DNA of 64,000 nt from a virus (IMGVR_UViG_3300021256_000055:71124-135123), one strand, 5' to 3'; shown: positions 3,131-25,712, counted from the stretch's first letter. Numbers and translations are program-made. Notes: a model not told the origin generated them from the sequence alone.

Positions 3131-3608
3131 AGAAAAGACGACAGATTCTGAAGTAATGATGGAAGCACCAAAAATGCTTAATGGACGTGAAGTTGAAGAT
3201 ATTAAAATTCGCTGTTCACGCCATGGTGATATTTCTCAAGGTTCTGTATACTTGAGATACTCAACAATTCAAGAAAGCACAAAAACAGTTATTAATAATA
3301 ATAATATTATGTGTATGTGTTGCTTAAATGAGCTTTATACTAAGCTTCAACAAACACCAAAAACAAATACTGTAATTTCTTATAAAAAAGATGATAATGG
3401 TAAATTGATTTTGGATGAAAATGGAAACCCAATCCAAATCGCTGAAAAGCAGGTTCTTTATCTTAAAGATAAAGAAGGCAATTTCATCTTAGATGACAAA
3501 GGTAATCCGGTACCAGAATATGAAGTAGGTACAACAACGGTTGAAGTTGTTTATAAAGATGAGCCTAAAAATGGTGAAGAAGTAACAAAAGACGCTGAAA
3601 ATAAATAA
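3117..3608 (+). CDS. Hypothetical protein with CxxH...CxCC motif and two D-x-x-G-x-x-I-L-D-x-x-G-N-P repeats
   Basis: Start moved to ATG 3117 (MEETKEK); CSRH and CMCC; DDNGKLILDENGNP / DKEGNFILDDKGNP. Confidence 0.7.
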   Translation: MEETKEKTTDSEVMMEAPKMLNGREVEDIKIRCSRHGDISQGSVYLRYSTIQESTKTVINNNNIMCMCCLNELYTKLQQTPKTNTVISYKKDDNGKLILDENGNPIQIAEKQVLYLKDKEGNFILDDKGNPVPEYEVGTTTVEVVYKDEPKNGEEVTKDAENK

Positions 3609-3619
3609 TATTTTTAGAA

Positions 3620-3651
3620 ACCCCTGTTAATATATTAAACAGGGGTATTTT
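3620..3651 (+). terminator. Intrinsic terminator
   Basis: acccctgtt-loop-aacaggggt stem followed by attttt, just after the 3608 stop. Confidence 0.75.
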
Positions 3652-3652
3652 T

Positions 3653-3868
3653 ATGTCTACATCTATTTGGCTAGTTATTCTAGCAATTATAGCGGGTATA
3701 AATATAATTTTAGGTATATTGAAAATAAAGGATAATTATATACAAGAAGGTGTTTATTCTTTTTTTATTTCTGCCTTTGCTATAGTACTTTTAATTTTAA
3801 TTAATTTTACAGGGCCCAATAAAAATGAGCCCCCTAAACAGGAGACTCACATTGAGCAGATTGGCTAA
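3653..3868 (+). CDS. Small membrane protein (2 TM)
   Basis: 71 aa, two hydrophobic helices. Confidence 0.6.
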   Translation: MSTSIWLVILAIIAGINIILGILKIKDNYIQEGVYSFFISAFAIVLLILINFTGPNKNEPPKQETHIEQIG

Positions 3869-3902
3869 AAATAAAGAGCATCTTTCGATGCTCTTTTTTA
3901 TT

Positions 3903-5729
3903 TTAGTCTTCAGAAAAATCCGCTTCCAAGTCACCAGCCATATAAGGAAGAAGGTCATACTTAATAAAGTAAACTTTCTGGTCATTCTCAAACTGCTGAT
4001 AAACTTCTGGTTTTAAGTAATCAGTAATACCTTTCTTTTCACACCATGTATCAAATCTTGCGAGTAACAAACCTGCAAGTGATGCAATAATACGAAGTTC
4101 AAGTCTAATACCAATACGCATATTTATCTTACTATTCTTATAGTTTAAGTCATTCATACAAGCCTTAAAGATTGCGAAAGACTCACGTTTTGCCCAATCA
4201 ACTAGTTCTGGCTCTGTAAGAGTTGTTTTACTTACATTAATCCAGTTAAGAACCTCTTCTGCGCGGAACAAGAATTGCTGTCTATTAAGGTAGATTGGAA
4301 TACAGTCACATCGAGACTGAATAGCATCATTCAAGTCTTCACGATTCAAGTTTGAAATCATTATCATTCTTGAAGTAAAGTAGAAAGAAGATGGAATTTC
4401 ATCTGCGATTTCATCAGCTACTGAGCCGTCAGCATTCATAACAGCCGCTGCCATATTATCTGAAGTTATACTGTTCAAGTCAATACCTTGAATAAATGTA
4501 TCCTGTTCTTTCAATGTCATTACTTTGCCATCTGGACGACAAAGAGGTTTACCACTCATAGCTTCCCTGAATTGTTCATAAGCCTTTCTCTCAGCTTCTG
4601 TAACTTTGTGCATTGGGAAACATTCTTTTAATTGAGCAGCTTCCTCTTTAGTAACATTACATTCATAAAGAAGTCCGCCAATACGATACTTAAGAATTCC
4701 TTCATCAACTTTAGATGTATCTACAGTGAATAATGTTCCTACTTCTGGAATTTCAGTATTAAGACATTCATCTAAGCCCATTTCTTTACGATAAAGCTTA
4801 GTTGCACCCTGACGAATAGTAGATGGAGTAGTAAGTGCATATCCATCTGGGTCCATTAAACACTTAAGGATGTTTTGAACATCATCATTGGTACTTGTAA
4901 CAAATCCGTCAGCATCATCAAGAATAATTACTTTATTTGCACGATTCTTAAAGAAGAAAACAATAAGTGGGGTAGGAGAAGCACCAATAGCGCCATGTGC
5001 TGTTTCAATTGTAGGTTTTGGACCCCTAGCAGTATTCCATTTTTCTACGCCTTTCTTAACAGCTTTAGCTACTGTATATGATTTACCAATACCTGGCTGA
5101 CCATAGATAAATGCAAATTGCTTCAATGAACGTCCTGATGCTACACGTTCAGAAGTCTGATAAATTTTATCAAACTTAGCATGAACAATTTCTTCAATTG
5201 AAGAACCTTTGGCATCAAAATCTGCAATAGCATTACGAAGATCTCTTAAAAATTTTGTTTCTGCTGAATCATCATCAGAACCTTCCTCATTAAAATCTTC
5301 TCTTGGGTCATCATCAGGTGATGCATATTTCTGTCCATTACTTGCAGTAATAGGAGTAGAATAATTTCCTTTACCCTCTGCCTTAGCAATACGTGCTTTA
5401 AGTTCATCTACAGTAAGTTTTTTAGCAGTAAATGAGTTATTATTCCAATCTGTTCTATTAAGATTAGCTAAATTGTAACCACTATCATTAAACTTTTCAA
5501 AAGTTCTATCTTCTGGATGGTCAACTGTAGCAAGAAAATATTTAAATATACAGGTAGATTTATTTATAGCTTCTTCAAGCTTACGCTGTTCTTGTCTTTT
5601 AATTCCCCAATCGTAACCTTCCCAAAGGTCTTCCAAAACGAGGTCTTCATTTGGGTCAAACATATACTCTGGAGGTAATGAGTCTGGTGGATTAATTGTA
5701 TCTGCTAATGTTCCTGTAATCATTGCCAT
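3903..5729 (-). CDS. AAA+ ATPase with large internal insertion
   Basis: Walker A GQPGIGKS, Walker B IILDD, IMISN sensor, AIQSRC arginine finger. Confidence 0.85.
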   Translation of the reverse strand: MAMITGTLADTINPPDSLPPEYMFDPNEDLVLEDLWEGYDWGIKRQEQRKLEEAINKSTCIFKYFLATVDHPEDRTFEKFNDSGYNLANLNRTDWNNNSFTAKKLTVDELKARIAKAEGKGNYSTPITASNGQKYASPDDDPREDFNEEGSDDDSAETKFLRDLRNAIADFDAKGSSIEEIVHAKFDKIYQTSERVASGRSLKQFAFIYGQPGIGKSYTVAKAVKKGVEKWNTARGPKPTIETAHGAIGASPTPLIVFFFKNRANKVIILDDADGFVTSTNDDVQNILKCLMDPDGYALTTPSTIRQGATKLYRKEMGLDECLNTEIPEVGTLFTVDTSKVDEGILKYRIGGLLYECNVTKEEAAQLKECFPMHKVTEAERKAYEQFREAMSGKPLCRPDGKVMTLKEQDTFIQGIDLNSITSDNMAAAVMNADGSVADEIADEIPSSFYFTSRMIMISNLNREDLNDAIQSRCDCIPIYLNRQQFLFRAEEVLNWINVSKTTLTEPELVDWAKRESFAIFKACMNDLNYKNSKINMRIGIRLELRIIASLAGLLLARFDTWCEKKGITDYLKPEVYQQFENDQKVYFIKYDLLPYMAGDLEADFSED

Positions 5730-5754
5730 AAAAATTATTACTCCCTTAATTATT

Positions 5755-5784
5755 AAAAAAGGGTAGGGATACTATACCCTACCC
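5755..5784 (-). terminator. Intrinsic terminator between scaffold-like gene and AAA ATPase
   Basis: gggtaggg-atactata-ccctaccc 8-bp stem; A6 on plus strand gives a U-tail on minus strand. Confidence 0.8.
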
Positions 5785-5810
5785 CTTCAAGTAGTCTCAA
5801 TTAAACAAGA

Positions 5811-6950
5811 TTATCTCTTGTTAAAACCTGACTTAAGGAAGTCTCCCCATTTGAAATTTCTCTTAGCAAGTTCTGCTTCGAGGCGCTGTTCAGCAAGGCC
5901 CTGAGCTGGCTTTTCAGCAGTCTCAGTAGATTCCTCAACTTTCTCATTAGACTCTTCAACTTTCTCAGCTGGTTTATCTTCAGTATCTGGAGTAAATTCT
6001 TCAGATTCTTTGATAGGCTCTTTGTTTTCTTCAGCAGCTGGTTCAGTAGATTCTTCTACATTACCAAGCTTCTTTCCAACTGGAACTTCGTTAAGAGGCT
6101 TTGTAGGCCAAGTATCAGCTGGTTCAGCTTCTTTAGAAGCGCCAGTAGCTGTACCCTTAACAAGCTCTTTCTCAGAAGGAATTTCAATAGCAGGTTTAGC
6201 CTGTTCGTCTTTACCTTCAGCAATACGAGCTTTAGAAGCCTCAATGCGTGATTCCATAACTGGAGCTGCTGGAGCAGCTGCTGCTGCATTAGGATCAGCT
6301 GGGGCACCAGTAACTGCAGGAACACCTGCGTTAGGGTCTGCACCCATATCTACAGGAGAAGCAATACCTGCCTGAGCTGCAAGAGCATCTACAGCAGTCT
6401 TAACCTGTGAAATCTGATCAACAACTTCCTGTGGAACTGGAGCTGTTGGAGTAGCCATTGCATTTGCGTCACCTTCTGCGCCTGTAACTGCTGCGCCTGC
6501 TGCCATTGTAGCATCAGCTGCGCCCATTACATCACCTTCTGAAAGACGTTTCTTTGCAAGAGCAACACATTTCTTAGATTCGTTAAGTTTGTCAAATACG
6601 CCCTTAACTGTAACTTTGTTTTCAACAATTTTTGATTTCTCTGAGCGAGTCTTCTCAAAGATACGAACTCTTTCTGAACGAGTAACTGGACCAAGGCCTT
6701 TAGACTCTTTGAACTCAGCAAATGCTTTGAGTGCCTTCTGGAATTCAGTTTCTTTTGCTTCATTAATTGGAGCCTCTGTTTTAGCTTTAGGCTCTTCTTT
6801 ACCTTCTTTTAAAGCTTTTTCCTCAGCTTTTACAGCTGCAGCGTAGCTTTCACGAATGAAGCTCATATCATATTCGTCCATTTCCTGTCCTGGGTGGTTA
6901 GCTTCTTTCCACTCAGCATACTTTGCGATAAATTCTGAAAATTTTACCAT
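5811..6950 (-). CDS. Acidic Ala/Glu-rich low-complexity protein, probable prohead scaffold/core protein
   Basis: About 14 (I/L/V/F)-x-E sites (INEA, LNES, VMES, IKES, VEES...), helical low complexity, short conserved-looking aromatic C-terminus (FKWGDFLKSGF). Confidence 0.6.
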   Translation of the reverse strand: MVKFSEFIAKYAEWKEANHPGQEMDEYDMSFIRESYAAAVKAEEKALKEGKEEPKAKTEAPINEAKETEFQKALKAFAEFKESKGLGPVTRSERVRIFEKTRSEKSKIVENKVTVKGVFDKLNESKKCVALAKKRLSEGDVMGAADATMAAGAAVTGAEGDANAMATPTAPVPQEVVDQISQVKTAVDALAAQAGIASPVDMGADPNAGVPAVTGAPADPNAAAAAPAAPVMESRIEASKARIAEGKDEQAKPAIEIPSEKELVKGTATGASKEAEPADTWPTKPLNEVPVGKKLGNVEESTEPAAEENKEPIKESEEFTPDTEDKPAEKVEESNEKVEESTETAEKPAQGLAEQRLEAELAKRNFKWGDFLKSGFNKR

Positions 6951-7022
6951 TTCGGTTATTTCCTATTTATTGTTAATCTTACATATTGCGTCGTTTGCAT
7001 TTATTCATATTTGAACGCATTC

Positions 7023-7058
7023 CCCGTATTTCTACGGATTAGGTCCTGTAGTGACCTA
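7023..7058 (-). promoter_or_regulatory. Two adjacent hairpins in the 5' leader of the scaffold-like gene
   Basis: Minus strand taggtc-actacag-gaccta and ccgta-GAAA-tacgg. Confidence 0.45.
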
Positions 7059-7124
7059 TTCATATAACAATCTATAAAAAAATTTTATATAATTGTAAAT
7101 AAATTAGTAATATTAAATTAAAAG

Positions 7125-7805
7125 TTACCAATCACAAGTGTAATCTTTTTTACCAAAATTACCAACATTATTAGCAAGTCTAGTATGTCCGCGAACAAAA
7201 TCCAAGTCAAATGTTAAATAAATCTTATTATTATATGAATAACCAAAATTATTTATAAAATCATTTTTAGACTCTAAACTTATACTACCAACTTTATACC
7301 TAATTTTACCAGTTTTTTCATCTCTATATGGCTTATTCATAGGTACTTTAACATCTATCCATATAATTGGTAAATCTGGTACTAACTCACCTGGTGCATT
7401 ATCTGATGAAAAACCAATAACAAGATCACCTACAGTGCTATTGAATTTATTATAAGCTGTTATACCTAATATATTTGCGGGTAAAATTTTCTGTACCCAT
7501 TCTTCTTTTTTTGAATTATAAAGTTCTTCAGTGTGTTTTACAATAATATTTTGATATCCTAAATCAAGAGCAATATAATTCAAAGCACTTAATACTACAT
7601 GCTCTGTAAGCGGTCCCCATACGTCAACTCTAAAATCTGTAGGATTTATCTGTTCAATATTATTATGATAATATTCTACTTTATCTAAAATCTCTTGCTT
7701 TGCATCACTAGAAAAATAGCTAGGTCCTTTATTTGCAAACGCTGCTAAAACCTCATTTATTTCTTCACTACAAATATCAAAATTTTCTTTAGTAATATCA
7801 CTCAT
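7125..7805 (-). CDS. Putative PD-(D/E)XK-fold nuclease
   Basis: GDLVIG...IWIDVK pattern; start at ATG 7805 overlapping upstream TGA. Confidence 0.45.
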   Translation of the reverse strand: MSDITKENFDICSEEINEVLAAFANKGPSYFSSDAKQEILDKVEYYHNNIEQINPTDFRVDVWGPLTEHVVLSALNYIALDLGYQNIIVKHTEELYNSKKEEWVQKILPANILGITAYNKFNSTVGDLVIGFSSDNAPGELVPDLPIIWIDVKVPMNKPYRDEKTGKIRYKVGSISLESKNDFINNFGYSYNNKIYLTFDLDFVRGHTRLANNVGNFGKKDYTCDW

Positions 7806-9396
7806 AAATATATACCTTATAGCCACAGTCGTACATAATATTGTAGCCTTCTTTTAATAAATTTAGTCTTGTTGATAGATCACTGTTAAAATCAAAATTA
7901 TCTTTTTGTTCTACCCAAGACCTTTTATTTAATGACCATGATTCAAGTTTACCGTCTCCTTTCCAGTAGTAAACTGATGGTACAGTATCTCTTAGATATT
8001 CCATAGCATTTGCTATATCATCTGGCCATCTCATATCATGATAATAAATCATACTTTCATCTGCATGCATTTTAGTCATCCAAATAACATATGCATGTAA
8101 GATATTTTCTATATAAGTTCCAACTTTAGAACATATTCTATTTAATTCCCAATTATATTCCTTTAGATATCTTGGTATTGAATATCCAGCCACTGAAACC
8201 AATTCGCCATTATAGTACATACCTAGTTTTAAGGATGCAGAGCCTTTACCCCATAAGTGATTATTTTCACAGAAGTCATTAAAAGTATCTAAGTCAATTT
8301 CTCTTATATCACAATTATAAGCAGAAATAGCTCTATCATAAATACCTAAAATATTTTTAATTTTAAATCTAACTATTTCTGGTTTAGTATACCAATAATC
8401 TTCCATTAAACCAATATAGGAAATTCCAAATTTCTCGCAATCCCTAGATTTTATTTGTAAATCATAATTACCAATATTAGAATGAGTTGCTGTTGAAATT
8501 AAATCAATTCCTACATTTTTTTCTGGAATATAAATATCAAAAGTAAAACCAGAAAAAGCATCATTATAGTCTGTTTTCGTTTCAAATCCTAATTTAGAAA
8601 TAAAAGCATTTATAGCACTTATCTGTCCTCGTGGTTTTACTGCTTTCATACAATTTGGACATCTATAAATTCTGGATTCATAAGTTACAGGAACTTCATA
8701 TCCACAAACGGCACATCTAAAATTATACATACCATTCTTAAAAATAAGATTTACATTTGGAAAATACTGTATAGCATTTAAGTAATCATTAAATCTTTTT
8801 TCTTTTTGTGGGGGAATATTATTTATTGAAGTTATTGTACTGTCATTATACTGGTCTTTTAATGAGTCAATCTGACTCTCCAATCTAATTCGCGTATAAG
8901 TTTCATAAGACCCATATTCTTCTTCTGCAGTCTGCTCAATATGCTTTTGTCTTATTGCATAAGCTTTTTCAACTGAGCCATATCTTTCCATCATACTAGT
9001 AAGGGATTTTAATCTAAAATCTGGTGCAAAAGCAGCATTTTCTACGCCTATAGTTTCCATTAAATGCTTTTTCTGGTTTTCATACCAAACTTTACCATAA
9101 TTTTCACCATACTTGGCTGCTTTTGTTGCTCTAATTTTTTCTTGTACTTCTGGACGGGCTTGTGGACTCGTAATCCCCGGCCCATATTTTGCTTCACAAG
9201 ACCTAGCCAACTTATGTGCTCGACAATAGATAAACTCTTTAGAAGAAGATAAATCAAAGTAAGACCTAACATGTAGTTTACCACATTTAGGACAATGACA
9301 CAAAATCTTAAATTTTCTCTTATCACTTTTAGGTTTAGGTAAATCTAAAAATTGACCATAGTTTTCAACTTCAGCATTATATGCTGGAAGATTCAT
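7798..9396 (-). CDS. Free-standing homing-endonuclease-like protein (Zn fingers, KYG repeats, Vsr/EDxHD-like nuclease, C-terminal GNAT-like region)
   Basis: CPKC, CAVC..CPNC, KYG/RYG repeats, FDIYIPEKNVGID..THS, FCENNHLWG...YNGELVSV...WELNR; GGAGG RBS before ATG 9396. Confidence 0.7.
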   Translation of the reverse strand: MNLPAYNAEVENYGQFLDLPKPKSDKRKFKILCHCPKCGKLHVRSYFDLSSSKEFIYCRAHKLARSCEAKYGPGITSPQARPEVQEKIRATKAAKYGENYGKVWYENQKKHLMETIGVENAAFAPDFRLKSLTSMMERYGSVEKAYAIRQKHIEQTAEEEYGSYETYTRIRLESQIDSLKDQYNDSTITSINNIPPQKEKRFNDYLNAIQYFPNVNLIFKNGMYNFRCAVCGYEVPVTYESRIYRCPNCMKAVKPRGQISAINAFISKLGFETKTDYNDAFSGFTFDIYIPEKNVGIDLISTATHSNIGNYDLQIKSRDCEKFGISYIGLMEDYWYTKPEIVRFKIKNILGIYDRAISAYNCDIREIDLDTFNDFCENNHLWGKGSASLKLGMYYNGELVSVAGYSIPRYLKEYNWELNRICSKVGTYIENILHAYVIWMTKMHADESMIYYHDMRWPDDIANAMEYLRDTVPSVYYWKGDGKLESWSLNKRSWVEQKDNFDFNSDLSTRLNLLKEGYNIMYDCGYKVYIYE

Positions 9397-9427
9397 AATA
9401 GCCTCCATAATACTAAATTAGGAAGCT

Positions 9428-10009
9428 TTATTTATTCCCAATCTGCTGCTTTAGTTTAGCGATAGTTTCTCTTATTGGCCGAATATCTTTATATTCAATA
9501 TTTTCAATTTTCTTTTCTAATTTATTGATTTTAGACTCTAAATCTTCTTTTGTATCAGAAATACTATCCTCTAATTGGCTAACGTCTTCATCAGTACGCT
9601 CACTTAATTTTTCTATTTCTCTAGCCACTAATTCAGTCATATTATCTTTAAGAACTTCCAATAAATGGGTAGTAACATCCCACCTAAAAGCATTTAAATC
9701 TAATTTAACGCCATCTGTAGCTTTAGCATTATTCTCAATTTGATTCATAAGATCAGCTACTTTTTCTTTAAGTATTTCTTTTAATGATTTTTCTGCAGAT
9801 TCAATTTCTTCTTCAAGCTCTACTTTATTTTTATGAATTTTTTCATATTGTACTTTATCGGAATCAATACTTTTTTGCTTATTTTCTTCAACTTCTTTTT
9901 CTAATGTCTCAAATCTTTGAAGTAATTTTCCACTTTTAACAAAAACCAAAATAATAGCTGCTAATGTACCAGCTACAGAACCTATTGCTGCCCAAGTTTC
10001 CCAATTCAT
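9428..10009 (-). CDS. N-terminal TM plus coiled-coil protein (possible holin/lysis accessory)
   Basis: One N-terminal hydrophobic helix then heptad-rich charged sequence; GGAG RBS. Confidence 0.55.
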   Translation of the reverse strand: MNWETWAAIGSVAGTLAAIILVFVKSGKLLQRFETLEKEVEENKQKSIDSDKVQYEKIHKNKVELEEEIESAEKSLKEILKEKVADLMNQIENNAKATDGVKLDLNAFRWDVTTHLLEVLKDNMTELVAREIEKLSERTDEDVSQLEDSISDTKEDLESKINKLEKKIENIEYKDIRPIRETIAKLKQQIGNK

Positions 10010-10192
10010 AATTTTTTAATTTCTCCGGAATTAATTAGGCTATAAAATACTTAAAGTTTAAAAACCATATATTAATAGCCGCTATCGCAAGGCTCAAATA
10101 TCCTTTCTTTCATTCATTAATTAATATAACTTCATTTTATGAAAATTCACATTAATTTACTAATTTTTTAAAATAAATATGGAGAAAATCAT

Positions 10193-10480
10193 ATGACAGA
10201 TTATGAAAAATCAGTATCTGACTCATTAGCTACTATGGCAAAGTCTTTTGATAGAATTGCTAATAGCTTATGTACTTATTTAGATGAAAATTTAAGGGTA
10301 TTACAAGAACGCAAAAAATTAGCAGAGGCTGAAACAGAAAAAAAGATTAAAGAAATCAATCAAATGAATAATACGAATGATACAGATGTTCAGCTTAAAG
10401 AACAAGCTCTTAGAGAGCGAGAGATTAGTGTTCGAGAACGTGAATTAAATATACGTGAAGCGGAGCTAGATGCAGAATAA
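10193..10480 (+). CDS. Hypothetical coiled-coil protein
   Basis: GGAG RBS, ACTAATT upstream, charged helical sequence. Confidence 0.7.
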   Translation: MTDYEKSVSDSLATMAKSFDRIANSLCTYLDENLRVLQERKKLAEAETEKKIKEINQMNNTNDTDVQLKEQALREREISVRERELNIREAELDAE

Positions 10481-10485
10481 AAATA

Positions 10486-10506
10486 AGCCACACAAATTGT
10501 GTGGCT
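10486..10506. terminator. Bidirectional intrinsic terminator
   Basis: agccacaca-aat-tgtgtggct between convergent genes, A/T tracts on both sides. Confidence 0.8.
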
Positions 10507-10514
10507 TTAATTTT

Positions 10515-11813
10515 TTAAAATCCTTTATTTGTACCAATATATTCTGGTGTCCATTCTTTTACATTTTTAAGTAAATATTTTTCATCATACTCTAATGGAA
10601 GTCCCTTTAATTTATTATACTCATTCCAATAAACTTTTGACCATTTACACTGCATTTTTGTTATTTCACATATATGCGTTGTTCTAACAAAATCGCCATA
10701 TTCCGCAAAACATCCACCAATACAATATGCGCAGGCTGAAGAAAACTCACAAGTTTTACATCTTTCCTCTTTAGAACAAGTATTATAGCAGCCCCCATGT
10801 CGTACTTTAATAAATGCCTCTTTATTATAAAGACCTCGGTCTACATCGCCAACTACCATTAAGTCACGAGTTTTATTAGTTTGTGTATGTGGTGCCCATC
10901 TAAAACATGGATAAATTTTTCCATTTATTCCTAAACATGGCATAGAACCAGACCCACATTTTGAAAGTCCATCTTCAGGTATCCTATGGTCAGCAAAAAA
11001 TGTTTTATCTAGCATTGACCAGAAAAGTTCATCATTATGCTCTAAAACATATTGAACACATAATTTTAATTGCTCATCTAGTAAAATATAATCTTCATTT
11101 GAAAGATGCATATCTTCCATAATAAAATTTTGATTAATATATCTAATTCCTAATGTTTCATGCATAAACTCTAAAGATTTTCTTAAAAATGGAATTGAGT
11201 CTTTTGCACAAGTCGCTTTAGTGATTAAGCACTCAGTAGGAAATGTTTCTTGATACCACTTCCAATTTTTTAAGATTGTATCCATTGTACCAATTTCTTC
11301 ACCATTAGGTCCACGTTGCTTAAAAATTCTATTTTTATCATGAATCTCAGGACATCCATCAATAGATACTCCTAGAGACAGATTATCTTTCCATCGTTCA
11401 CAAAACTGTTTAACATCTTCATTGCCGAATAATGTTCCATTAGATGATATATTACATCTCCAATTTTTTCGCCAACGTTTACAATATTCTGTATTTGATT
11501 TATTTACTTTATAAAGAAAATATTCAATAATAGATTCTACAGTAGATACATTCATTAAAGAATCTCCACCGATAAAATCTAAAATAATACCTTGACTTAT
11601 AATATTATCAAGATTGTCATCATTAGTATCCTTAGTAAATCCTAAGGGATCTTCATCATCAGTAATTAAATCTATAAATTTATAAGCTGTATCTAAGCTT
11701 AAATCTTTTTTTCTTTTATTTATTTCATAACAATATTTACAAGCTAAATTACAATCTTCTGTTGTATTAAAAGTTATAGTTAAGCCTGTAAACTCTGTTC
11801 CTTTTGTTATCAC
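10515..11813 (-). CDS. Radical SAM/SPASM peptide maturase, CXXX-repeat target family (TIGR04115-like)
   Basis: CNLACKYC (CxxxCxxC), DFIGGD, SSNG, SIDG..HDKNR, SPASM CGSG...YPC...CKTC..SACAYCIGGC...HIC; AGGAG RBS and GTG start. Confidence 0.93.
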   Translation of the reverse strand: MITKGTEFTGLTITFNTTEDCNLACKYCYEINKRKKDLSLDTAYKFIDLITDDEDPLGFTKDTNDDNLDNIISQGIILDFIGGDSLMNVSTVESIIEYFLYKVNKSNTEYCKRWRKNWRCNISSNGTLFGNEDVKQFCERWKDNLSLGVSIDGCPEIHDKNRIFKQRGPNGEEIGTMDTILKNWKWYQETFPTECLITKATCAKDSIPFLRKSLEFMHETLGIRYINQNFIMEDMHLSNEDYILLDEQLKLCVQYVLEHNDELFWSMLDKTFFADHRIPEDGLSKCGSGSMPCLGINGKIYPCFRWAPHTQTNKTRDLMVVGDVDRGLYNKEAFIKVRHGGCYNTCSKEERCKTCEFSSACAYCIGGCFAEYGDFVRTTHICEITKMQCKWSKVYWNEYNKLKGLPLEYDEKYLLKNVKEWTPEYIGTNKGF

Positions 11814-11822
11814 ACAATACTC

Positions 11823-12179
11823 CTATGGATGAAAATATAATGTTTTGTTAAAAATAACAGCTTGTGATATATCTAATTTATGTCCAAGTTTTCTTTCTAT
11901 TTCTTCTATTTCACTAGGAGATAGATGACTAAGGATATTATTAAATATTTCCTTATTTAGAAACTCAAACTCACATTTTTCAGCTAATAATTTGTTAAAG
12001 TAATTATAAATTTCATTTTTCTTAAAAAAAGAAAAGTTTATCTTACTCGCATCCATTGCGCTTTTATTACAATGATTCATGTTAAAAAATGCGTCATACT
12101 TATCTGAAAAATTATTTAATTTAAGAACAGGTATAAGAGTAGCCTTACAATCAGAACATACTATATTATCAAATGTCAT
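11823..12179 (-). CDS. CXXX-modification-system accessory protein B (118 aa, N-terminal CxxC)
   Basis: Real start ATG 12179 immediately after the target gene stop (the ORF-track extension to 12374 is an overlap artefact); resembles 13663-13977. Confidence 0.7.
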   Translation of the reverse strand: MTFDNIVCSDCKATLIPVLKLNNFSDKYDAFFNMNHCNKSAMDASKINFSFFKKNEIYNYFNKLLAEKCEFEFLNKEIFNNILSHLSPSEIEEIERKLGHKLDISQAVIFNKTLYFHP

Positions 12180-12180
12180 T

Positions 12181-13650
12181 TTATTTAAGCTTCCATTTAC
12201 TAAAAATTGCTTTAGATGAGCCATTAGCACAGCTATTACTACATGTATCCTGACAGGTATCTTTACATCCGTTAGCACAGTCATTCTTACAATTATTTCT
12301 ACAAGAGCCCGTACAAGAATCTCCACATCCTGATTTACAACCGTCTCCACAGCCACCTGCACAAGTACTGCCACATCCTACAGCACAGGCTTTAGAACAG
12401 CCACCATCACATTTAGCTCCACAACCAATTTTACAGCTTTCTGAACATCCTCCTGCACAAGCTTTTCCACAATCTTTAGCACAGTCTGTTCTACATCCTC
12501 CAGCGCAGGCACCACCACAGCCTTTTTTACAATCCGCACTACAACCTCCGGCACAAGCGCTACCACAGCCTACTTTACATGCTTCTGAACATCCACCCGC
12601 ACAACCGCCACCACAGCCTACTTCGCAACTTGCAAAGCATTTATTACTACAGCCGCTATAGCATCCGCCGCCACATCCAGTATAACAACCACCGCTACAA
12701 GTATTTCCACAGGATTCTTTTCCACAATTACTTCCAGAACAACCAGCATTACAACTACTTGCACAATCAGATGCACCCCATCCTGAACAGCACTTTGAGC
12801 TAAATACACAGTCGCCTTCTTGTCCAGAAGAACATGAGCTACCCGCGCATTTACCATCACAGTCTGATGAACAACCAACATTAGAACAAGCAGCGCCACA
12901 AGAACCAGTACATTTGCTACCACAAGCGCCTTTACACTGTGCGCCACAAGAGCCATGTTTACATGCGGCTGTACATCCATCTGCACAGCCATTTCCACAA
13001 TCTTTCTGGCAGGCTTTAGAACATCCACCGTCGCATTTAGCACCACAGCCTACTTTACAGGCCTCTGAGCATCCACCGGCGCAGCCGTTACCGCATCCTA
13101 CTTCACATGCTTTAGAACAACCACCATCGCATTTACTTCCACAACCTTTAGCACAATCTGCTCTACAGCCGCCGTCACATGAAGTTCCACAGCCTTTAGC
13201 GCAATCAGTGCTACATCCCCCCTTACAAGCAGCGCCACAGGATGATTTACAGCTACCTGAACATCCACTATCACAGTTGGTATTACCACAATTACCATTA
13301 CAGGTATTTCCACAATTTCCAGCACATCCCATACAGTGGTTTGTACAATTGGCTGCGCACCCGATTTTATCGTTTATATCTGAATCAACTTGATTTAGGT
13401 AATCTAAAAACCCACTATAAATTTGAGACCCCGCAAATACTGCATCTGGGTCTGAGTTCTTACCAAAATTATAAGGGTCAGTAGTATATCTTAAGCCATC
13501 AGCGGCTTCATCAAGAATATCTTTAACGTCAGTATCTGTATTAGACCCCGTAGAAAAAGTAGGAATATCTCCTGTATTATAAGCTGCTTTTTTAGCATTT
13601 ATAGACTTGATTATGGAATTAAGTTGGTTAGCAGTAATTTCAGAGGCCAT
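12181..13650 (-). CDS. Cys-rich CXXX-repeat protein, putative radical-SAM modification target
   Basis: 97-aa Cys-free N-terminus, then about 92 Cys mostly spaced CXXX; adjacent to rSAM. Confidence 0.92.
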   Translation of the reverse strand: MASEITANQLNSIIKSINAKKAAYNTGDIPTFSTGSNTDTDVKDILDEAADGLRYTTDPYNFGKNSDPDAVFAGSQIYSGFLDYLNQVDSDINDKIGCAANCTNHCMGCAGNCGNTCNGNCGNTNCDSGCSGSCKSSCGAACKGGCSTDCAKGCGTSCDGGCRADCAKGCGSKCDGGCSKACEVGCGNGCAGGCSEACKVGCGAKCDGGCSKACQKDCGNGCADGCTAACKHGSCGAQCKGACGSKCTGSCGAACSNVGCSSDCDGKCAGSSCSSGQEGDCVFSSKCCSGWGASDCASSCNAGCSGSNCGKESCGNTCSGGCYTGCGGGCYSGCSNKCFASCEVGCGGGCAGGCSEACKVGCGSACAGGCSADCKKGCGGACAGGCRTDCAKDCGKACAGGCSESCKIGCGAKCDGGCSKACAVGCGSTCAGGCGDGCKSGCGDSCTGSCRNNCKNDCANGCKDTCQDTCSNSCANGSSKAIFSKWKLK

Positions 13651-13662
13651 TTTAATTAAGTC

Positions 13663-13977
13663 CTATTCAGTTGGATGCCGCCAAATTTTACCGTCTAAGA
13701 TACGAATATCATCAGAAGGACTAATATGGTGGTTCTCAACTATTTTGTTAAAAGTTAAGTAATCAAGAACTTTGTTATTTGCTAGCTGATTATATACTGC
13801 ATGAAAATATTCCGAAACTTGTTCAGAATTTTTAAATGCTTTTGCATTCCCAAATAAGTTCTGAAGTTCTTCATTCAATATTGAATACTTTGTTTCAATA
13901 AAGCTAACATCTTTAATTTCGTCTTCAGTAAGCTCCGAAATTAGCTCAAGTTCTTTTCCACACTGATCACATGTCAT
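13663..13977 (-). CDS. CXXX-modification-system accessory protein A (104 aa, TIGR04116-like)
   Basis: AGGAGG RBS; CDQC then ISELTEDEIKD helix pattern recalled from TIGR04116-type proteins; gene context. Confidence 0.65.
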   Translation of the reverse strand: MTCDQCGKELELISELTEDEIKDVSFIETKYSILNEELQNLFGNAKAFKNSEQVSEYFHAVYNQLANNKVLDYLTFNKIVENHHISPSDDIRILDGKIWRHPTE

Positions 13978-13990
13978 GTGTATACCTCCT

Positions 13991-14009
13991 AATTAGTTTT
14001 TTAATTAGC
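13991..14009 (-). promoter_or_regulatory. Tandem RCTAATT candidate late-promoter motifs heading the rSAM cassette
   Basis: GCTAATT 14003-14009 and ACTAATT 13991-13997 just upstream of RBS and ATG 13977. Confidence 0.6.
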
Positions 14010-14049
14010 AAAATCTGAGGTTTTCTAAAATGTTCTTTTTCAAGGCTTA

Positions 14050-17000
14050 CTATGTTGTTATCCAGATAGCGCCATTAGTGGTTGGTGTTGTAGATGGGTC
14101 AATTTCTACTACTAAAGGCGCTTTAGGCCCTTGTGGTCCTTGTGGTCCCCGGTCTCCTTTATCCCCTTTTGCACCTTTCAAATAATCAAAAGTAAATGTT
14201 GTATTCGACCCTGATGTACTTGCTGTAACAGATGGAGTACCAACAGAGTTTATATTTTTACCAGCAGCAACACTAATAGATGGTACGATATATATACCAC
14301 GAGGTGTTGGTCGTGTATTAGCACTTGGTTCCACACTCTGGTCATTTATTGTATACTTTGATGACTTAACAGACCAGCTACAGATATATGTAGATTCTAA
14401 TAAATATTTTCCACCACCACGTAAATAAAATACTGGTACGCTACTATTTGTAAGCTGGGTATAACTAACTGGAGACTGGTTTGTACATCCAGTAACTGCT
14501 TGTGTCCAACTAAAATTATCAATAAACTTTATGCAAGTAGCAGGGGTAGATCCCCAACCACTTCTTTGCTCTTGAACCTCAAATTCAACTGAAAAACCTT
14601 GGCCATGAGTAGCCCAAGCCGGTTTTGTACCAGAATTAAGTTGGACAGTACATCTTAAATTTTGAACGCCATCACTACTTAGAGCAGTACCAACAACTGG
14701 GAACCAAGTATTACTATTTAGAGAAGATACATCTACCCAAGTTTTTGATATCCAAGGATCATTCATAGAATATGGCCCTGTCCAAGATCCACTATTATAG
14801 TGACATACCCATGTAGATGCAACATTTAATGCAGCAGTCATAGCGGATAGGTATAATGTACCAAATTTATAATTATCACCACCTATGCCACTACGATGTG
14901 GTATATAAAACCAAGTATACCAACAATTTCCAACAGGACCATTTGATAAGTTTACTGATCCATGTCGAGCTGGCGCATTAGTTTTACTAGTATTTGCTAT
15001 ACTTGCTAAGAAATCAGCAAGCTTAATTGCACTGTCACTGATGGTTACACCAAAACCATAATCATCTACAGCAGTTGATATTGCGGAATTTCTGTTAGAA
15101 ACTTCTGTATTTATATTGTCAGCAATTATACTATTTATTTCCTGATAATTACCAGCAGCGTTTCTAGTTTCAAGTTTTTCTATTTTAGTACTTGCAATCC
15201 AGCTTTCTGGGACACGCTGAATAGAATCTTTGATTTCATCAACACTAACAACGGTTCCTTGGTAGGAACCACTATAGCCTAACATAGTTCTTGAATATTC
15301 ACCAGGGTTACCATGTATATAATCTAATGTTATACCTGCATCATATCCGCTATTGGATAAGTAAACTTTAATACCTAGCCAGGTAACGCCATTATATACA
15401 AATGTAACTGGCTCTATACTAACTCCATGGGCTTCAACTTTATTAAGATTTATATAAGTTTTCCAACTATGAGAATATCCATGACCCGCAATAAATTCAA
15501 CTTGACCCACATTATGACCAGAAGACCTTACAAATGTTACTTTTCCACTTATATCCCAGTTATATGGACTATTAACTGCAGTAGAGCCTACCTCTAAGAC
15601 TTGCCCCAAAAATAAAACATAGGAAACACTTTCTGTTAACCGAGGCACAGTTAGAGTCTTAAAATATGAGTTTGCGGAAATATTATTACTAATAGAAGCA
15701 GACTTGCCTGAGATGCTATTTGTTGCAGAGATATCCTTAGTAGAAACTTTATTAGTTGCTGAAATACTGTCCGATGCAGAGAGAGTTTTAGTAGAAATAT
15801 CACCACTAACCGTTTCTTTGTTTACTGTTACTGAATCACCAATTAAAGAGCCATGAATAGGATTTGTTGCGGATAAATTATTAAATACGCCATTCTGTTT
15901 TAAGTCATCTAAGTCTGATTCTATACGCGCTTCAAATGCATCGAGTTCTTTTTCAGCACCATCTATAAAGCTATCTACTCTACTAGAAAGAGTAGCTTCT
16001 GTTTGAGAAACTCTATTTATTATAGATGTATCATTCTGTTTTCTTGCAGCTTCTTCTTTTTTAAGCTCATTTATAAATTGTGTGTAAAAAGTATTAACTA
16101 GATTTTGGGCTTCTGACGAAGTGATACCTGTAACAGTAACAACTTTACCTTCATCATTAAATCCCCAGTCCATCTGAGGATTTTCATCGCCATTAAGCGC
16201 ATAATTGAAAAGGCTATAGTTAATACTAATAGCAGGCTCTGGCTCATTTAGCTGCTTTTTAATTGTTACTCGAATATCATCGTCATATGATACAGCATAT
16301 GTATCATCAACCATATTATTATATTTTTCTACAGCATTAGTCATAACTGATGACATACGCTGCTTAAGTTTATCTATACTATCAGCTTTATTTTCATAAA
16401 GGTCTGTTTCAGGCGTAGATTTTTGTTGTAAAATTATGTCGTCTATAGTATCATTAGAAATATTTACTAATGACTGAATAGCTGAATCATTCGTTAAATT
16501 TTTTAGTGTTGTATTAAGATCCCCAACAAGCTTTGCCATTTCAGCCGTAACTTTTGGAGCATATACATTATCAAAGTAAGCATTTAAGCTACCATATTCA
16601 GAAAGAATTGAGGTATCATTTTCTATGTCTTCTTCCGCAACTCTATAGTATTTATCGCGTAAAGAATTAAGAACAATCTTATATACTTGAGTATCTTTAA
16701 TAGTATCAGGTACAATATCACTATGAATTGCATTATATTCTTCATTAAACTTTAAGTTAACATTATTAGCAATTTTAGTTTTACTGTCTTCAAGTATATT
16801 AATGCTATAATCAATGCTATTTCCTAATTTTCGTCCTCGTTCAAGACAATAAAGAGTATTATATAATTCTTCATAGTTAATAGAAGCAACAGCTGAACCA
16901 AATAGGTCTGTATAGTCTAACGCAACTTTATAGTCAGATGTACCCCAGTTAAAGGCAGGTTTATTGACATCAGACCAGCGTCTCGCATCATATGCTTTAA

Positions 17001-17082
17001 CTATAATAGGAGCGCCTGCTTCAGCGGCTTTCATAATATTTATTTGTTCTGGTATAGTTTTTTTAGATTTATCGTCAGCCAT
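14050..17082 (-). CDS. Tail fibre protein (coiled coil, knob-like domain, C-terminal collagen-like repeat)
   Basis: WYTWFYIPHRSG..GDNYKFGTL knob-type motif, GAKGDKGDRGPQGPQGP, AGGAG RBS before ATG 17082. Confidence 0.7.
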   Translation of the reverse strand: MADDKSKKTIPEQINIMKAAEAGAPIIVKAYDARRWSDVNKPAFNWGTSDYKVALDYTDLFGSAVASINYEELYNTLYCLERGRKLGNSIDYSINILEDSKTKIANNVNLKFNEEYNAIHSDIVPDTIKDTQVYKIVLNSLRDKYYRVAEEDIENDTSILSEYGSLNAYFDNVYAPKVTAEMAKLVGDLNTTLKNLTNDSAIQSLVNISNDTIDDIILQQKSTPETDLYENKADSIDKLKQRMSSVMTNAVEKYNNMVDDTYAVSYDDDIRVTIKKQLNEPEPAISINYSLFNYALNGDENPQMDWGFNDEGKVVTVTGITSSEAQNLVNTFYTQFINELKKEEAARKQNDTSIINRVSQTEATLSSRVDSFIDGAEKELDAFEARIESDLDDLKQNGVFNNLSATNPIHGSLIGDSVTVNKETVSGDISTKTLSASDSISATNKVSTKDISATNSISGKSASISNNISANSYFKTLTVPRLTESVSYVLFLGQVLEVGSTAVNSPYNWDISGKVTFVRSSGHNVGQVEFIAGHGYSHSWKTYINLNKVEAHGVSIEPVTFVYNGVTWLGIKVYLSNSGYDAGITLDYIHGNPGEYSRTMLGYSGSYQGTVVSVDEIKDSIQRVPESWIASTKIEKLETRNAAGNYQEINSIIADNINTEVSNRNSAISTAVDDYGFGVTISDSAIKLADFLASIANTSKTNAPARHGSVNLSNGPVGNCWYTWFYIPHRSGIGGDNYKFGTLYLSAMTAALNVASTWVCHYNSGSWTGPYSMNDPWISKTWVDVSSLNSNTWFPVVGTALSSDGVQNLRCTVQLNSGTKPAWATHGQGFSVEFEVQEQRSGWGSTPATCIKFIDNFSWTQAVTGCTNQSPVSYTQLTNSSVPVFYLRGGGKYLLESTYICSWSVKSSKYTINDQSVEPSANTRPTPRGIYIVPSISVAAGKNINSVGTPSVTASTSGSNTTFTFDYLKGAKGDKGDRGPQGPQGPKAPLVVEIDPSTTPTTNGAIWITT

Positions 17083-17090
17083 AAACTCTC

Positions 17091-18575
17091 CTATTCGGTT
17101 CTTTCCCAACAATATTTAACTGTATAAGGTGGCATAATATTGAATGCATCACCAGTAGCTTTACTATTACCGCCACCAGTAACTGTAATCTTTGCTGAGG
17201 TGGTTGTAGTATCATTTTTAGCGCTAGCATTATATAAAAGTGGATACGCATTTGATGAGCCACTGATACTATCTGTTTTTGTTATAGTTACTGTATGACT
17301 ATGCGCAGGTAAGTTTTTTGTTGCCAATGCTGCAGTTTTACTACCACCAGTAGTATCTACTGAGTCTGAATCACCAGCAGCATAAATAAAAGTATCTGTT
17401 ATACGTTTCCATTTTCCACCAAATAGCGTATCAGGTGAAGTATTCTTACTAGACCAATAGAGAGACCCTACTGGGTAAGATATATCTAGAACCATTCGTT
17501 TAATAGATTCTGTTAATTCTAGTTTAGAAGCGCTATCTAAATTTTCTGCGTTTTCAGATGCTTCTTTTAGGAATATCGGCTTTGCATTAGCTATTTTTTC
17601 ATCTATATCATTAAGAATAATCTCATGCAAAGAATTATCATAATCTTTAGCAGTTTTAAGTATACTTTCCTTATTAACAGTATCTCTAAACTCTGCTGTG
17701 GAAATAGCATCTGCAATAGCATTATTAAGTTCAGACCTAGTTACTTCAACTTCAGAATATGTAATATTTCCTTGTGAATCAGTCTTAACGCCATACTCTG
17801 GTGACGCGCCTACAGTAGCTTTTGCCAAATCGTAGGATACAGATAATACATTTTCACGTCCAAGATTTTTCCAGAATCGTAAAGTTATACCTTTTTCTTC
17901 AAGTTCTATTATTGTACCATCTTCTGTAGTTGGATATATTTCCATAACCTGAGACGCAAGCTTATTTACAATAGATTTCAAGTCATCTATAGATGGCGCA
18001 TTATTTTCATATAGTACTTTATCAGAATCTGGTAAAGTGCTTAATAATTCTTTTGTAGATTGTGAAATAACTTTATTAGCAGCGAGTATTATACTATCAC
18101 GTAGAGTTGTTTTAGCAATATTTTGAATTTCAGCAATATAATCATTTATAGTATCTGCATCACCACCGACTGCATGTATAAGCTCTTTAAAAAAATCGGT
18201 TTTAATTAAGCTCGCTTTATCTAATGCTGCGCAATCTACATCTATTTTTGTAGAAATATCAGATTTAACATTTGTTTCTAATAAATTAATCTGTTGTTCA
18301 GCATAGTCGATTGGACTTCCTAAGTTTTTACCACGCTCTAAATAATTTAATTGGTTTACTAAATCTGTAAAATTAAGAGTTGTATTCTCTGGGTTAGATA
18401 AAAGAGAAGTGTAATCCGTAACAATCTTATAATCAGAAATACCCCAGTTAAATACTGGATTTTCTGTACGCGCCCAAACTTGAGAATTTTCGGATTTAGT
18501 ATAAACTAAGCCGCCAGCATTTGCAACCTGCATTACGGCAATTTTTTGAGCAAGGTCTTTCTTAGATGCTGCCAT
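17091..18575 (-). CDS. Baseplate/tail protein with gp10-like C-terminal domain
   Basis: YPVGSLYWS..SPDTLFGGKW...GGSKT..L..KNLPAHSH...NIMPPY..YCWER; N-terminal about 330 aa paralogous to 14050-17082. Confidence 0.8.
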   Translation of the reverse strand: MAASKKDLAQKIAVMQVANAGGLVYTKSENSQVWARTENPVFNWGISDYKIVTDYTSLLSNPENTTLNFTDLVNQLNYLERGKNLGSPIDYAEQQINLLETNVKSDISTKIDVDCAALDKASLIKTDFFKELIHAVGGDADTINDYIAEIQNIAKTTLRDSIILAANKVISQSTKELLSTLPDSDKVLYENNAPSIDDLKSIVNKLASQVMEIYPTTEDGTIIELEEKGITLRFWKNLGRENVLSVSYDLAKATVGASPEYGVKTDSQGNITYSEVEVTRSELNNAIADAISTAEFRDTVNKESILKTAKDYDNSLHEIILNDIDEKIANAKPIFLKEASENAENLDSASKLELTESIKRMVLDISYPVGSLYWSSKNTSPDTLFGGKWKRITDTFIYAAGDSDSVDTTGGSKTAALATKNLPAHSHTVTITKTDSISGSSNAYPLLYNASAKNDTTTTSAKITVTGGGNSKATGDAFNIMPPYTVKYCWERTE

Positions 18576-18577
18576 TT

Positions 18578-19399
18578 TTATCTATTTACCTCCACAGTGC
18601 CAGTTGGGTTTGTCCAATTACCACCTGATATTTTAGTATGCTGGCACCATAGAGTATCCTCTAGAGTTTCCTGTAAAAGAACTACTGCTGTATCAGCCTT
18701 ATCTTCTTCATAACCTGAATTATTTTTATCATACCATTTACCATTATCAGAAGGTAATACGTAGTTAGTATTTTTTATATCACCACGAACTTTAACAGTT
18801 GCAGTTTGTTCGTCATTAGCTGCATTCTTGAAATGCTTTATACTATCACGGAATGGTAGGTCTGGATTATCTAATGAATTTCCAATAGCAGTACCCATGC
18901 GACCAATATATTTATAAAAAGAAATAGTTACCGCTTCATCAAGGTGTTCAGATACAAATTTTGCATCTGTAAAAGTTAAAGTACCCGCAGCAACATTAAA
19001 TATAGGATTTCCTACACCATATGCCAATCGGTGACCATTAAGATAAATTTTGGGAACATACGTATCACCAGAGTCCTCTAAAATAATATTTTTTAATTCT
19101 GGATTAGAAAAACTATTTAATGTTCCTTTTACTTTTGGTAATGGCAATGCATCATAATAAGAAATTAAATTATTTATAGTCGCACCATCATTAAAAGTAT
19201 ATACAATGCCTCTCTTAAAATGATTACCTTCAGTATCACTTGTATCTATAAGCTTACCTATATATTTTGGTGCAACTTCTGGTAAAAGATTTGCATCCCT
19301 CCAAATTTGGTTAGATTTAATTACTCTACCAACTGTTTTTTCGGGCTCTTCAAATTTTTCTCTAGAAGTTTCTACAAAGGATGTATATTCTTTATCCAT
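18578..19399 (-). CDS. Putative structural (baseplate/tail) protein
   Basis: Shares GVG....G.LTF / ISFY.Y.G.MG motif with the N-terminus of 19399-24180; operon context. Confidence 0.6.
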   Translation of the reverse strand: MDKEYTSFVETSREKFEEPEKTVGRVIKSNQIWRDANLLPEVAPKYIGKLIDTSDTEGNHFKRGIVYTFNDGATINNLISYYDALPLPKVKGTLNSFSNPELKNIILEDSGDTYVPKIYLNGHRLAYGVGNPIFNVAAGTLTFTDAKFVSEHLDEAVTISFYKYIGRMGTAIGNSLDNPDLPFRDSIKHFKNAANDEQTATVKVRGDIKNTNYVLPSDNGKWYDKNNSGYEEDKADTAVVLLQETLEDTLWCQHTKISGGNWTNPTGTVEVNR

Positions 19400-25674: not shown

Positions 25675-25712
25675 AAAATAATAATTATACCTAAAATAGG
25701 AATTTGTATACT

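Follow-up and report, generated by a model that had tools for sequence, protein, structure and literature searches.

A jumbo-phage radical-SAM cassette with a CXXX-repeat protein, possibly a modified component of the tail-fibre apparatus

Why would a giant gut phage carry, beside its baseplate and fibre genes, a radical S-adenosylmethionine (rSAM) enzyme together with a protein built on cysteines spaced four residues apart? The question is raised by a gene cassette in a 64,000-nucleotide (nt) stretch of DNA (IMGVR_UViG_3300021256_000055:71124-135123; hereinafter, the window, whose positions serve as coordinates throughout). It belongs to a viral contig of 258.5 kb from IMG/VR (GC content of ~32%; estimated to be 88% complete), the source of which is a jumbo phage. 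A sequence-only reading of the window had described four tightly packed minus-strand genes, and all four open reading frames (ORFs) were recovered with identical boundaries, separated by gaps of 12, 1, and 9 nt:

13663-13977, minus strand: helper A, 104 amino acids (aa)
12181-13650, minus strand: target, 489 aa
11823-12179, minus strand: helper B, 118 aa, counted from an internal ATG
10515-11813, minus strand: rSAM/SPASM maturase, 432 aa, GTG start

The CXXX-repeat system of TIGRFAMs/NCBIfam, defined by comparative genomics, consists of an rSAM enzyme (TIGR04115), a partner protein (TIGR04116), and a target (TIGR04114/PF27846); to our knowledge, it has not been characterized biochemically. Comparison of the window with other phages suggests, rather than proves, that a tail-fibre component is chemically modified by antibiotic-type peptide chemistry. 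We assign a probability of roughly 0.55 to the reading in which the cassette is a divergent jumbo-phage version of this system that has been adapted to a protein of the tail-fibre apparatus and not to a secreted peptide. The most likely course of events, held with the same modest preference, is that the enzyme and its helper or helpers recognize the N-terminal domain of the target and modify its Cys array to give a product that belongs to the fibre apparatus or is joined to it.

The enzyme points to this system. Its best match among 36 families was TIGR04115 (202.4 bits; E = 1.4e-59; model positions 3 to 354 of 359), followed by PapB (NF047865; 108.9 bits versus a cut-off of 340), QhpD (67 bits), and the SCIFF maturase (59 bits). 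TIGR04463 was matched only at an E value of 7e-11, and matches to anaerobic sulfatase maturases and other SPASM families were also found. The sequence-only reading had called the enzyme TIGR04115-like and had proposed a search with the TIGR04114, TIGR04115, and TIGR04116 models. The family assignment held, with TIGR04115 on top, but strict membership did not (202 versus 350 bits, in a deep sister clade), and each of the three models either remained below its cut-off or gave no match. The gene neighbourhood that goes with TIGR04115 is present, with the CXXX target one gene (helper B) away from the rSAM gene. The radical-SAM motif CX3CX2C (C21, C25, and C28) and the SPASM cysteines (C286, C303, C346, C352, C355, C361, C364, C368, and C382, with a C286...G...C303 arrangement) are invariant across 12 clade members. 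Because the enzyme begins directly at the radical-SAM core, it has no built-in recognition domain (i.e., an N-terminal RiPP recognition element [RRE], where RiPP denotes a peptide made by the ribosome and modified after translation).

The target is the sole frame of its kind among the 1,351 frames of the 258.5-kb genome. By direct count, it contains 92 Cys residues; of the 91 distances between successive Cys, 80 equal exactly 4 residues, and CXXX accounts for 81 of the 92 units. It can be divided as follows:

13360-13650, minus strand: N-terminal domain, aa 1 to 97, the first Cys being residue 98
12229-13359, minus strand: CXXX core, aa 98 to 474 (377 residues), with two arms, an irregular centre, and a 16-residue super-repeat
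12181-12228, minus strand: C-terminal tail, aa 475 to 489, ending in ...NGSSKAIFSKWKLK, plus the stop codon

With its first Cys at residue 98 of 489, the target bears out the earlier description of a protein-sized substrate headed by a 97-aa N-terminal domain. The core is composed of 24% Cys, 23% Gly, 12% Ser, and 11% Ala, and the X positions are largely taken up by Gly, Ala, and Ser; acceptors of the Asp, Glu, or Thr type are few. The TIGR04114/PF27846 repeat model gave six matches in the target, all short of membership (best, 13.6 bits versus a cut-off of 20), and TIGR04117 gave 12.2 bits (cut-off, 50); phrog_6085 was matched at an E value of 1e-6. Short C-terminal tails devoid of Cys, similar to that of the target, are also found in clade relatives. 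A related-strain contig (run X3) skips 96 nt in frame (12509-12606; 32 residues, i.e., two super-repeats), suggesting at the sequence level that the repeat number varies between strains; this variant, seen in a single low-depth contig, fits a length-tolerant rod better than a globular fold.

The N-terminal domain of the target aligns with those of phage-type targets from both rSAM clades (mean column identity, 24%), with no invariant column outside the Cys run. A profile built on it finds only the target frame in the genome (45 bits), and a search with this profile for longer fused proteins, in which Cys-rich words crowd the candidates, gave a single match. The AlphaFold2 (AF2) model of the domain comprises three helices at low confidence (predicted local distance difference test [pLDDT], 56), too poor for a fold search, and a predicted complex of the domain with helper A scored 0.01, which we count neither for nor against binding. 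The domain is probably a recognition and/or docking domain, although an origin as a leader peptide is conceivable.

Tail genes recur around such cassettes in other phages. Neighbouring genes were annotated with PHROGs, Pfam, PDB, and the ESM Atlas. Of the 24 viral clusters with a target that were left after dereplication, 14 had a tail homologue in the locus, versus none of 22 bacterial loci of the twin-arginine translocation (TAT) type (phmmer with verified tail seeds). The former count should be taken as a minimum; in small phages, chance would account for part of it, which does not hold for genomes of 206 to 388 kb. In the window, the two genes ahead of the cassette encode a Gp10_C baseplate protein and a paralogue of it:

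17091-18575, minus strand: baseplate/fibre protein, Pfam PF21939 (Gp10_C; 66.4 bits versus a cut-off of 27), two genes upstream of the cassette
14050-17112, minus strand: fibre-like protein, 1,020 aa, with a collagen-like GXY run near its C terminus, directly upstream of the cassette

The former also matches PHROG tail families (e.g., phrog_5717; E = 1.6e-18). The latter, which had been taken for a tail-fibre gene, matches phrog_10903, a family of unknown function (E = 6.5e-17), and has no tail family match; what stands of that description is the common N-terminal region, of which ~300 aa match the Gp10_C protein (E = 1e-21).

Elsewhere, the same arrangement takes several forms. In a 66-kb provirus (L020; enzyme, 634 bits), tail genes, including a baseplate wedge gene (phrog_6) and a baseplate gene (phrog_1160), lie just upstream of the cassette. 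A tail-fibre gene immediately precedes the cassette in L046 (206 kb), where the distance is 22 bp, and in L048. The cassette of a Neglectibacter prophage (L094) is located between baseplate and tail-fibre genes, with similar layouts in L095 and L098, and that of a prophage in a Ruminococcaceae metagenome-assembled genome (MAG; L100) follows P2-like baseplate V/W/J/I and fibre genes, which we identified by reading their N-terminal sequences, not by a family search. A gene with a Peptidase_G2-type autochaperone domain is directly upstream of the target in L014 (388 kb), L051, L054, L072, L098, and L137, and directly upstream of the rSAM gene in L053 and L058, where small targets lie downstream. 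This assignment is based on the C-terminal domain, which the Atlas placed with the autochaperones of phi29 gp12 preneck appendages (score, 0.95; template-modelling [TM] score, 0.76).

That the repeat is a structural module is suggested most strongly by protein fusions in three phages other than that of the window. In L070 (284 kb), a 451-aa protein is similar over its first 220 residues to tail collar and upper fibre proteins of solved structure (PDB 9d93, a tail collar fibre, E = 1e-8; 6v8i, E = 3e-3) and closes with nine CXXX units; an rSAM gene is found two genes downstream. An 809-aa protein of L029/L031 combines a CXXX stretch of ~230 residues with two ALK-like Gly-rich domains; it is encoded between fibre genes and a putative GH25-type lysin gene (a label that rests on our reading of the N terminus, not on a family search), with a helper and an rSAM gene following. 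In L100, two Cys-repeat proteins (11226-11972 and 19119-19721), encoded directly after the baseplate/fibre genes and the rSAM gene, begin with CXXX repeats and carry a conserved recognition-type domain ('...EYRRRG...') at the C terminus, a position that argues against a cleaved N-terminal leader. The sequence-only reading had called for a survey of homologous cassettes for linkage to tail genes, a lack of which would have told against its interpretation; the outcome was the opposite, as this linkage was found, both in the counts given above and in the fusions of L070 and L029, and the cassettes, true TIGR04115 ones included, recur in baseplate/fibre modules of unrelated phages and prophages. 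A different arrangement was observed in L079, a 136-kb viral contig, where, downstream of fibre genes, the region 4210-11759 contains four to five rSAM-like genes and, in their midst, two paralogous ~200-aa proteins with a distinct Cys pattern (CNYSCTCNCNYACTCN); this has the look of a more elaborate variant.

The enzyme family extends well beyond the window. We identified 475 enzyme homologues in metagenomes (E ≤ 1e-20) and, by profile search, 80 viral (IMG/VR) loci, most of which combine a Cys-repeat protein of 110 to 540 aa, a helper of 90 to 113 aa, and an adjoining rSAM gene. Genuine TIGR04115 members occur on phage contigs (L020, 634 bits; L048, 514 bits; L054, 466 bits). A quick phylogenetic tree (Shimodaira-Hasegawa-like approximate likelihood ratio support [SH-aLRT] only, midpoint root; only starred clades are used) revealed three well-supported groups: (i) a large-phage clade that includes the window and Margulisiibacteriota contigs, (ii) Clostridia phages and prophages, and (iii) Bacteroidota chromosomes. 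The window enzyme clusters with other large-phage enzymes in a clade with 100% support and, as far as this phylogeny indicates, falls into a deep jumbo-phage sister clade. Targets of the first two groups have in common an N-terminal domain of ~100 aa, with a helix bearing a basic motif near the start and another that directly precedes the first Cys. Bacteroidota chromosomal targets start with a TAT-type signal (SRREFFKKAAK), and some Clostridia targets are peptides of 59 to 80 aa. In the chromosomal TIGR04115 loci (L108, L147, and ~20 other Bacteroidota), a true TIGR04116 gene is located ~1 kb downstream of the rSAM gene, after a gene for a ~320-aa protein; this layout differs from that of the phages. 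The rSAM clade of the window also includes loci from Candidatus Termititenax/Margulisiibacteriota MAGs (L141, L142, L143, and L145), whose targets have 495 to 667 aa and 79 to 122 Cys and whose neighbours include a helicase; these may be phage or prophage DNA binned into MAGs.

Distant rSAM homologues of the window enzyme (26% identity) are encoded by cultured giant phages of the SPN3US-like type. Salmonella phage SPN3US (NC_027402; L087) contains three unannotated Cys-repeat ORFs:

3109-3501: Cys-repeat ORF, 130 aa
3512-3916: Cys-repeat ORF, 134 aa
3932-4138: Cys-repeat ORF, 68 aa

These ORFs have N-terminal domains of ~60 aa and are flanked by the gene for the virion structural protein gp099 on one side and by two rSAM genes on the other. 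What is annotated as gp100 (3585-3920) is an Ala/Val-rich product read in a different frame of the same strand, and it overlaps the second Cys ORF (3512-3916). Going by the annotation, the locus would have no Cys-rich neighbour, an interpretation that the three ORFs in its DNA rule out. A related gene set is carried by cultured phiEaH2-like phages of Erwinia. Since cultured phages of both types carry related genes, the role of the cassette is open to direct experiment.

The AF2 model of helper A (pLDDT, 93) combines a strand with a long helical hairpin and, at the C terminus, a beta-hairpin, and the protein has an N-terminal CxxC. The ESM Atlas model of the same protein matched a cluster named "CXXX repeat peptide modification system protein" (TM scores, 0.53/0.59), and hhalign of the window-clade helper alignment against 29 true TIGR04116 members gave a probability of 95.3% (E = 2e-8; 85 columns). 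By profile comparison and predicted structure, helper A is a remote TIGR04116-type homologue of the same fold or superfamily. The TIGR04116 hidden Markov model (HMM; cut-off, 50 bits) matched neither helper even at E ≤ 10, and it gave 22 bits with clade relative L016 and 14 bits with L002. A Foldseek search of the helper A model against PDB returned nothing at E ≤ 0.001, just generic helical hairpins, and no PqqD-type RRE was among the matches. Helper B, like helper A, has an N-terminal CxxC and a ..YFHP/..WRHP type of C-terminal ending, and it was the second-best frame genome-wide (12.4 bits; E = 0.013) for a helper profile built without it; it is a probable, weakly supported divergent paralogue of helper A. 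Two helpers are also found in relatives L007 and L014.

The elements that flank the cassette, along with examples of its upstream motif elsewhere in the window, are as follows:

13978-14049, minus strand: spacer of 72 bp in which CTAATTA occurs twice in tandem (14002-14008 and 13990-13996), along with a GGAGG ribosome-binding site
10485-10507, both strands: bidirectional intrinsic terminator with a 10-bp stem, a 3-nt loop, and T-runs on both strands, closing the cassette
32211-32217, 27660-27666, 25669-25675, 35704-35710, and 10032-10038: further CTAATTA sites, as examples from the motif search of the window

The gap of 72 bp to the upstream gene, whose stop is at 14050, had been described as free of a terminator, and a terminator scan of this spacer predicted none; the closing hairpin, placed earlier at 10486-10506, was found one nucleotide wider at each end. 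The tandem motif does precede helper A, but its supposed specificity to structural genes was not upheld. CTAATTA occurs 13 times in the window, with 10 of the 13 copies ≤80 nt upstream of an ORF on the same strand. According to PHROG and Pfam scans, one of the genes that it precedes encodes a Nudix hydrolase and the others have no recognized structural family, which makes it a general upstream motif and not a marker of structural genes. Strongly enriched ahead of ORFs, it is a candidate phage promoter element. The claim that the cassette has no peptidase or transporter gene stood in part: no such family was recognized among the neighbours scanned, a partial check in which four of the nine larger neighbours had no family and which did not cover the 95-aa ORF at 10193-10480. 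Just downstream of the cassette, 7798-9408 encodes a 536-aa HNH/homing endonuclease (phrog_3339; E = 2e-46), homologues of which are also found near the L004 and L013 cassettes.

The 258.5-kb record, complete to an estimated 88%, gave no match at E ≤ 1 to the TIGR04119 CXXX_matur domain, a further part of the cellular systems. The NrdD family is also absent from it, and it therefore offers no genomic marker of an anaerobic lifestyle for the window phage. Megablast of the region against cultured phages gave no match. Near-identical DNA was found mainly in animal-gut metagenomes; of these runs, X2, X3, and X8 were aligned to the stretch, and outside the probable source sample every run covers only part of it. 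Two metatranscriptomes of the source sample contained next to none of the stretch's words, and the one aligned (run X21) gave zero coverage. Contigs from a bovine-gut metatranscriptome share 95 to 99% identity with parts of four genes (those for the rSAM enzyme, the target, helper A, and the fibre-like protein); being contigs of an RNA library, they are no proof of transcription, as DNA carry-over is possible. The window also contains a Cpn60/GroEL-type chaperonin gene (728-2404); an independent assembly has the identical gene, for which Pfam Cpn60_TCP1 is on record.

If the cassette serves the fibre apparatus, it would be transcribed with or just after the baseplate/fibre genes; it has its own upstream motif and is closed by a terminator. 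The rSAM enzyme, without a recognition domain, would use helper A, and probably also helper B, to engage the 97-aa N-terminal domain of the target, and it would then modify many of the 92 regularly spaced Cys residues. The product would most likely contain intramolecular Cys-S-to-carbon thioether bridges, by analogy with PapB, the SCIFF maturase, QhpD, and CrpC. Thioethers are our best guess because the nearest characterized families all form them and because a SPASM enzyme has been reported to cross-link a Cys-rich protein (PMC13692751). The N-terminal domain would be retained, given that no protease family was recognized among the scanned neighbours, and the modified Gly/Ser/Ala-rich repeat would form, on the fibre or next to it, a covalently stapled rod or tip that withstands proteases and reducing conditions. 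The sequences show the gene content, the family relationships, the recurrent position in tail modules, and the fusions to fibre domains in other phages; the order of binding, the chemistry, and the incorporation into the virion are what we infer; a protein stapled in this way might have no need of disulfides. A wider proposal is more tentative, and we regard it as somewhat less probable than its negation: that many phages of anaerobes and SPN3US-like giant phages of enterobacteria staple a Cys-every-fourth protein of the fibre or tip through rSAM-made thioethers. This would be the first RiPP-type enzymatic cross-linking of a virion structural protein, and it would make the CXXX family largely an accessory of phage host recognition.

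Several observations weigh against a stapled fibre component, and some of them lend themselves to other explanations. One, unlikely but to be taken seriously, is that the cassette is late-expressed cargo, i.e., that it yields a large Cys-rich product, RiPP-like or metal-binding, which functions inside the infected cell or is set free at lysis (e.g., in competition, metal or sulfide handling, or host manipulation) and that adjoins the fibre genes only because it landed in an insertion-tolerant region. Tail-fibre-adjacent regions are known hot spots for accessory cargo (classic moron sites), so that synteny alone is weak, and a 20-kb locus in a 40- to 70-kb phage often includes tail genes by chance. 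The cassette of L004, a close relative, follows NrdD with no recognized tail gene beside it; the neighbours of L016 and L017 gave no tail-family match, most of them having no family at all; and in the window, the gene at 14050-17112 has no tail family of its own. Cargo would also suit a cassette with its own upstream motif and terminator, and the cellular members of the family, with their TAT-type signals in Bacteroidota and 59- to 80-aa peptides in Clostridia, are clearly not virion proteins. Against cargo, in-frame fusions join CXXX repeats to a real fibre in L070 and to domains of the receptor-binding type in L029, and the cassettes of L094, L098, and L100 are located between baseplate and fibre genes and not at the end of the module. 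Furthermore, phage-type targets have a distinct ~100-aa domain and no signal peptide, no exporter was recognized among the scanned neighbours, and the cassette is conserved in phages of 206 to 388 kb (L014, L046, L070, and the window), taken as lytic, in which chance adjacency to fibre genes is small.

Alternatively, the product may belong to the fibre but owe its function to something other than thioethers, a rather improbable explanation: it could bind metal or Fe-S clusters, form extracellular disulfides, or act as an assembly scaffold that is not retained, and the rSAM reaction could instead yield formylglycine from Cys, dehydro residues, epimers, or inter-chain links. We know of no TIGR04115 member with a known product or chemistry, and related SPASM enzymes also perform other reactions, such as formylglycine formation; the window enzyme, short of the 350-bit TIGR04115 cut-off, also matches anaerobic sulfatase maturases and other SPASM families. 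The usual acceptors (Asp, Glu, and Thr, as in PapB-, QhpD-, and CteB-type substrates) are few in a target whose X positions are mostly Gly, Ala, and Ser, which makes a different chemistry possible. The low-confidence model of the N-terminal domain provides nothing that ties it to a known baseplate-docking fold, our literature search found no proteomic, structural, or biochemical evidence for any member, and the Peptidase_G2-type gene directly beside the cassette in many lineages would be in line with a role in assembly. Nevertheless, the nearest characterized relatives by score (PapB, 109 bits; QhpD; SCIFF maturase) all make Cys thioethers, and the strict four-residue Cys spacing is conserved over 377 residues while the X residues vary, as in a repeat read by an enzyme. 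It is highly improbable that the Cys-rich frame is a mere by-product of a simple DNA repeat. The local GC content (0.40 versus ~0.30 to 0.36 in adjoining blocks), the strong GC skew, and several long overlapping open frames in the region could be read that way, but the same N-terminal domain and neighbours accompany Cys-repeat proteins in dozens of diverged phages, the frame is tightly spaced to its flanking genes and has a ribosome-binding site, the strain variant differs by an in-frame 96-nt unit, and the same frame was called in an independent assembly.

If the fibre-apparatus reading is correct, the peptide chemistry of radical-SAM enzymes, hitherto associated with antibiotics and cofactors, would also build virus particles, and an orphan but widely distributed rSAM family would gain a purpose. 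Phage structural biology would acquire a new form of covalent reinforcement beside the HK97 chainmail, and fibre maturation would include an oxygen-sensitive step, possibly restricting host range or how well gut phages can be produced. The repeat proteins may also be of interest as enzyme-stapled, protease-resistant scaffolds.

Among known systems, PapB (freyrasin), the SCIFF maturase CteB, and QhpD are thioether-forming SPASM enzymes, of which QhpD cross-links a protein subunit instead of a free peptide. These are the next-best families of the window enzyme, all below cut-off, and they use Asp, Glu, or Thr acceptors at fixed offsets, which are sparse in the window target. Nor does the target resemble a classical RiPP precursor with a short cleaved leader and export, as it has an N-terminal domain of ~100 aa and no peptidase or transporter was recognized among the scanned neighbours. 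Among virion proteins, the HK97 capsid forms an isopeptide chainmail, and phi29 gp12 and endosialidase fibres have autocleaving C-terminal chaperone domains. The likeness lies in a post-translational step dedicated to hardening or assembling a part of the virion, with a Peptidase_G2-type gene adjoining the cassette in several lineages; however, those reactions are autocatalytic, whereas the window system would need a separate Fe-S/SAM-dependent radical enzyme and helpers. Our literature search found no such separate enzyme-dependent step described for a virion protein, and no paper linking the CXXX-repeat/TIGR04115 system to phages, ranthipeptides to phages, or rSAM enzymes to tail fibres or SPN3US.

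A close parallel in substrate is CrpC, an rSAM/SPASM enzyme of the TIGR04463 family from Methanococcus voltae, which installs ranthionine thioether cross-links on the Cys-rich protein CrpA (PMC13692751, 2026). As in the window, a SPASM enzyme is paired with a protein-sized, repeat- and Cys-rich substrate, and the N-terminal region of CrpA mediates engagement with no leader protease, as proposed here for the target (PMC13692751). In contrast to the window system, CrpC belongs to another rSAM family, its substrate has a 17-residue motif with C-X-X-Q/D, and the system is archaeal and cellular and has no TIGR04116-type helper (PMC13692751). The TIGR04115 system itself has the same components as the window, i.e., a SPASM rSAM enzyme, a small helper of the same fold or superfamily, and a Cys-every-fourth substrate, encoded side by side. 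The window departs from it in that the enzyme scores 202 versus 350 bits and falls into a separate clade with 100% support, the helpers are two and miss the HMM, TIGR04119 is absent, the target is a 489-aa protein with a 97-aa non-signal N-terminal domain, and the genes are located in a jumbo-phage tail module instead of a Bacteroidota chromosome with TAT-signal targets. To a system that has been catalogued but, as far as we could find, not studied, the window adds a jumbo-phage version that branches deeply and comes with two helpers and a target of protein size.

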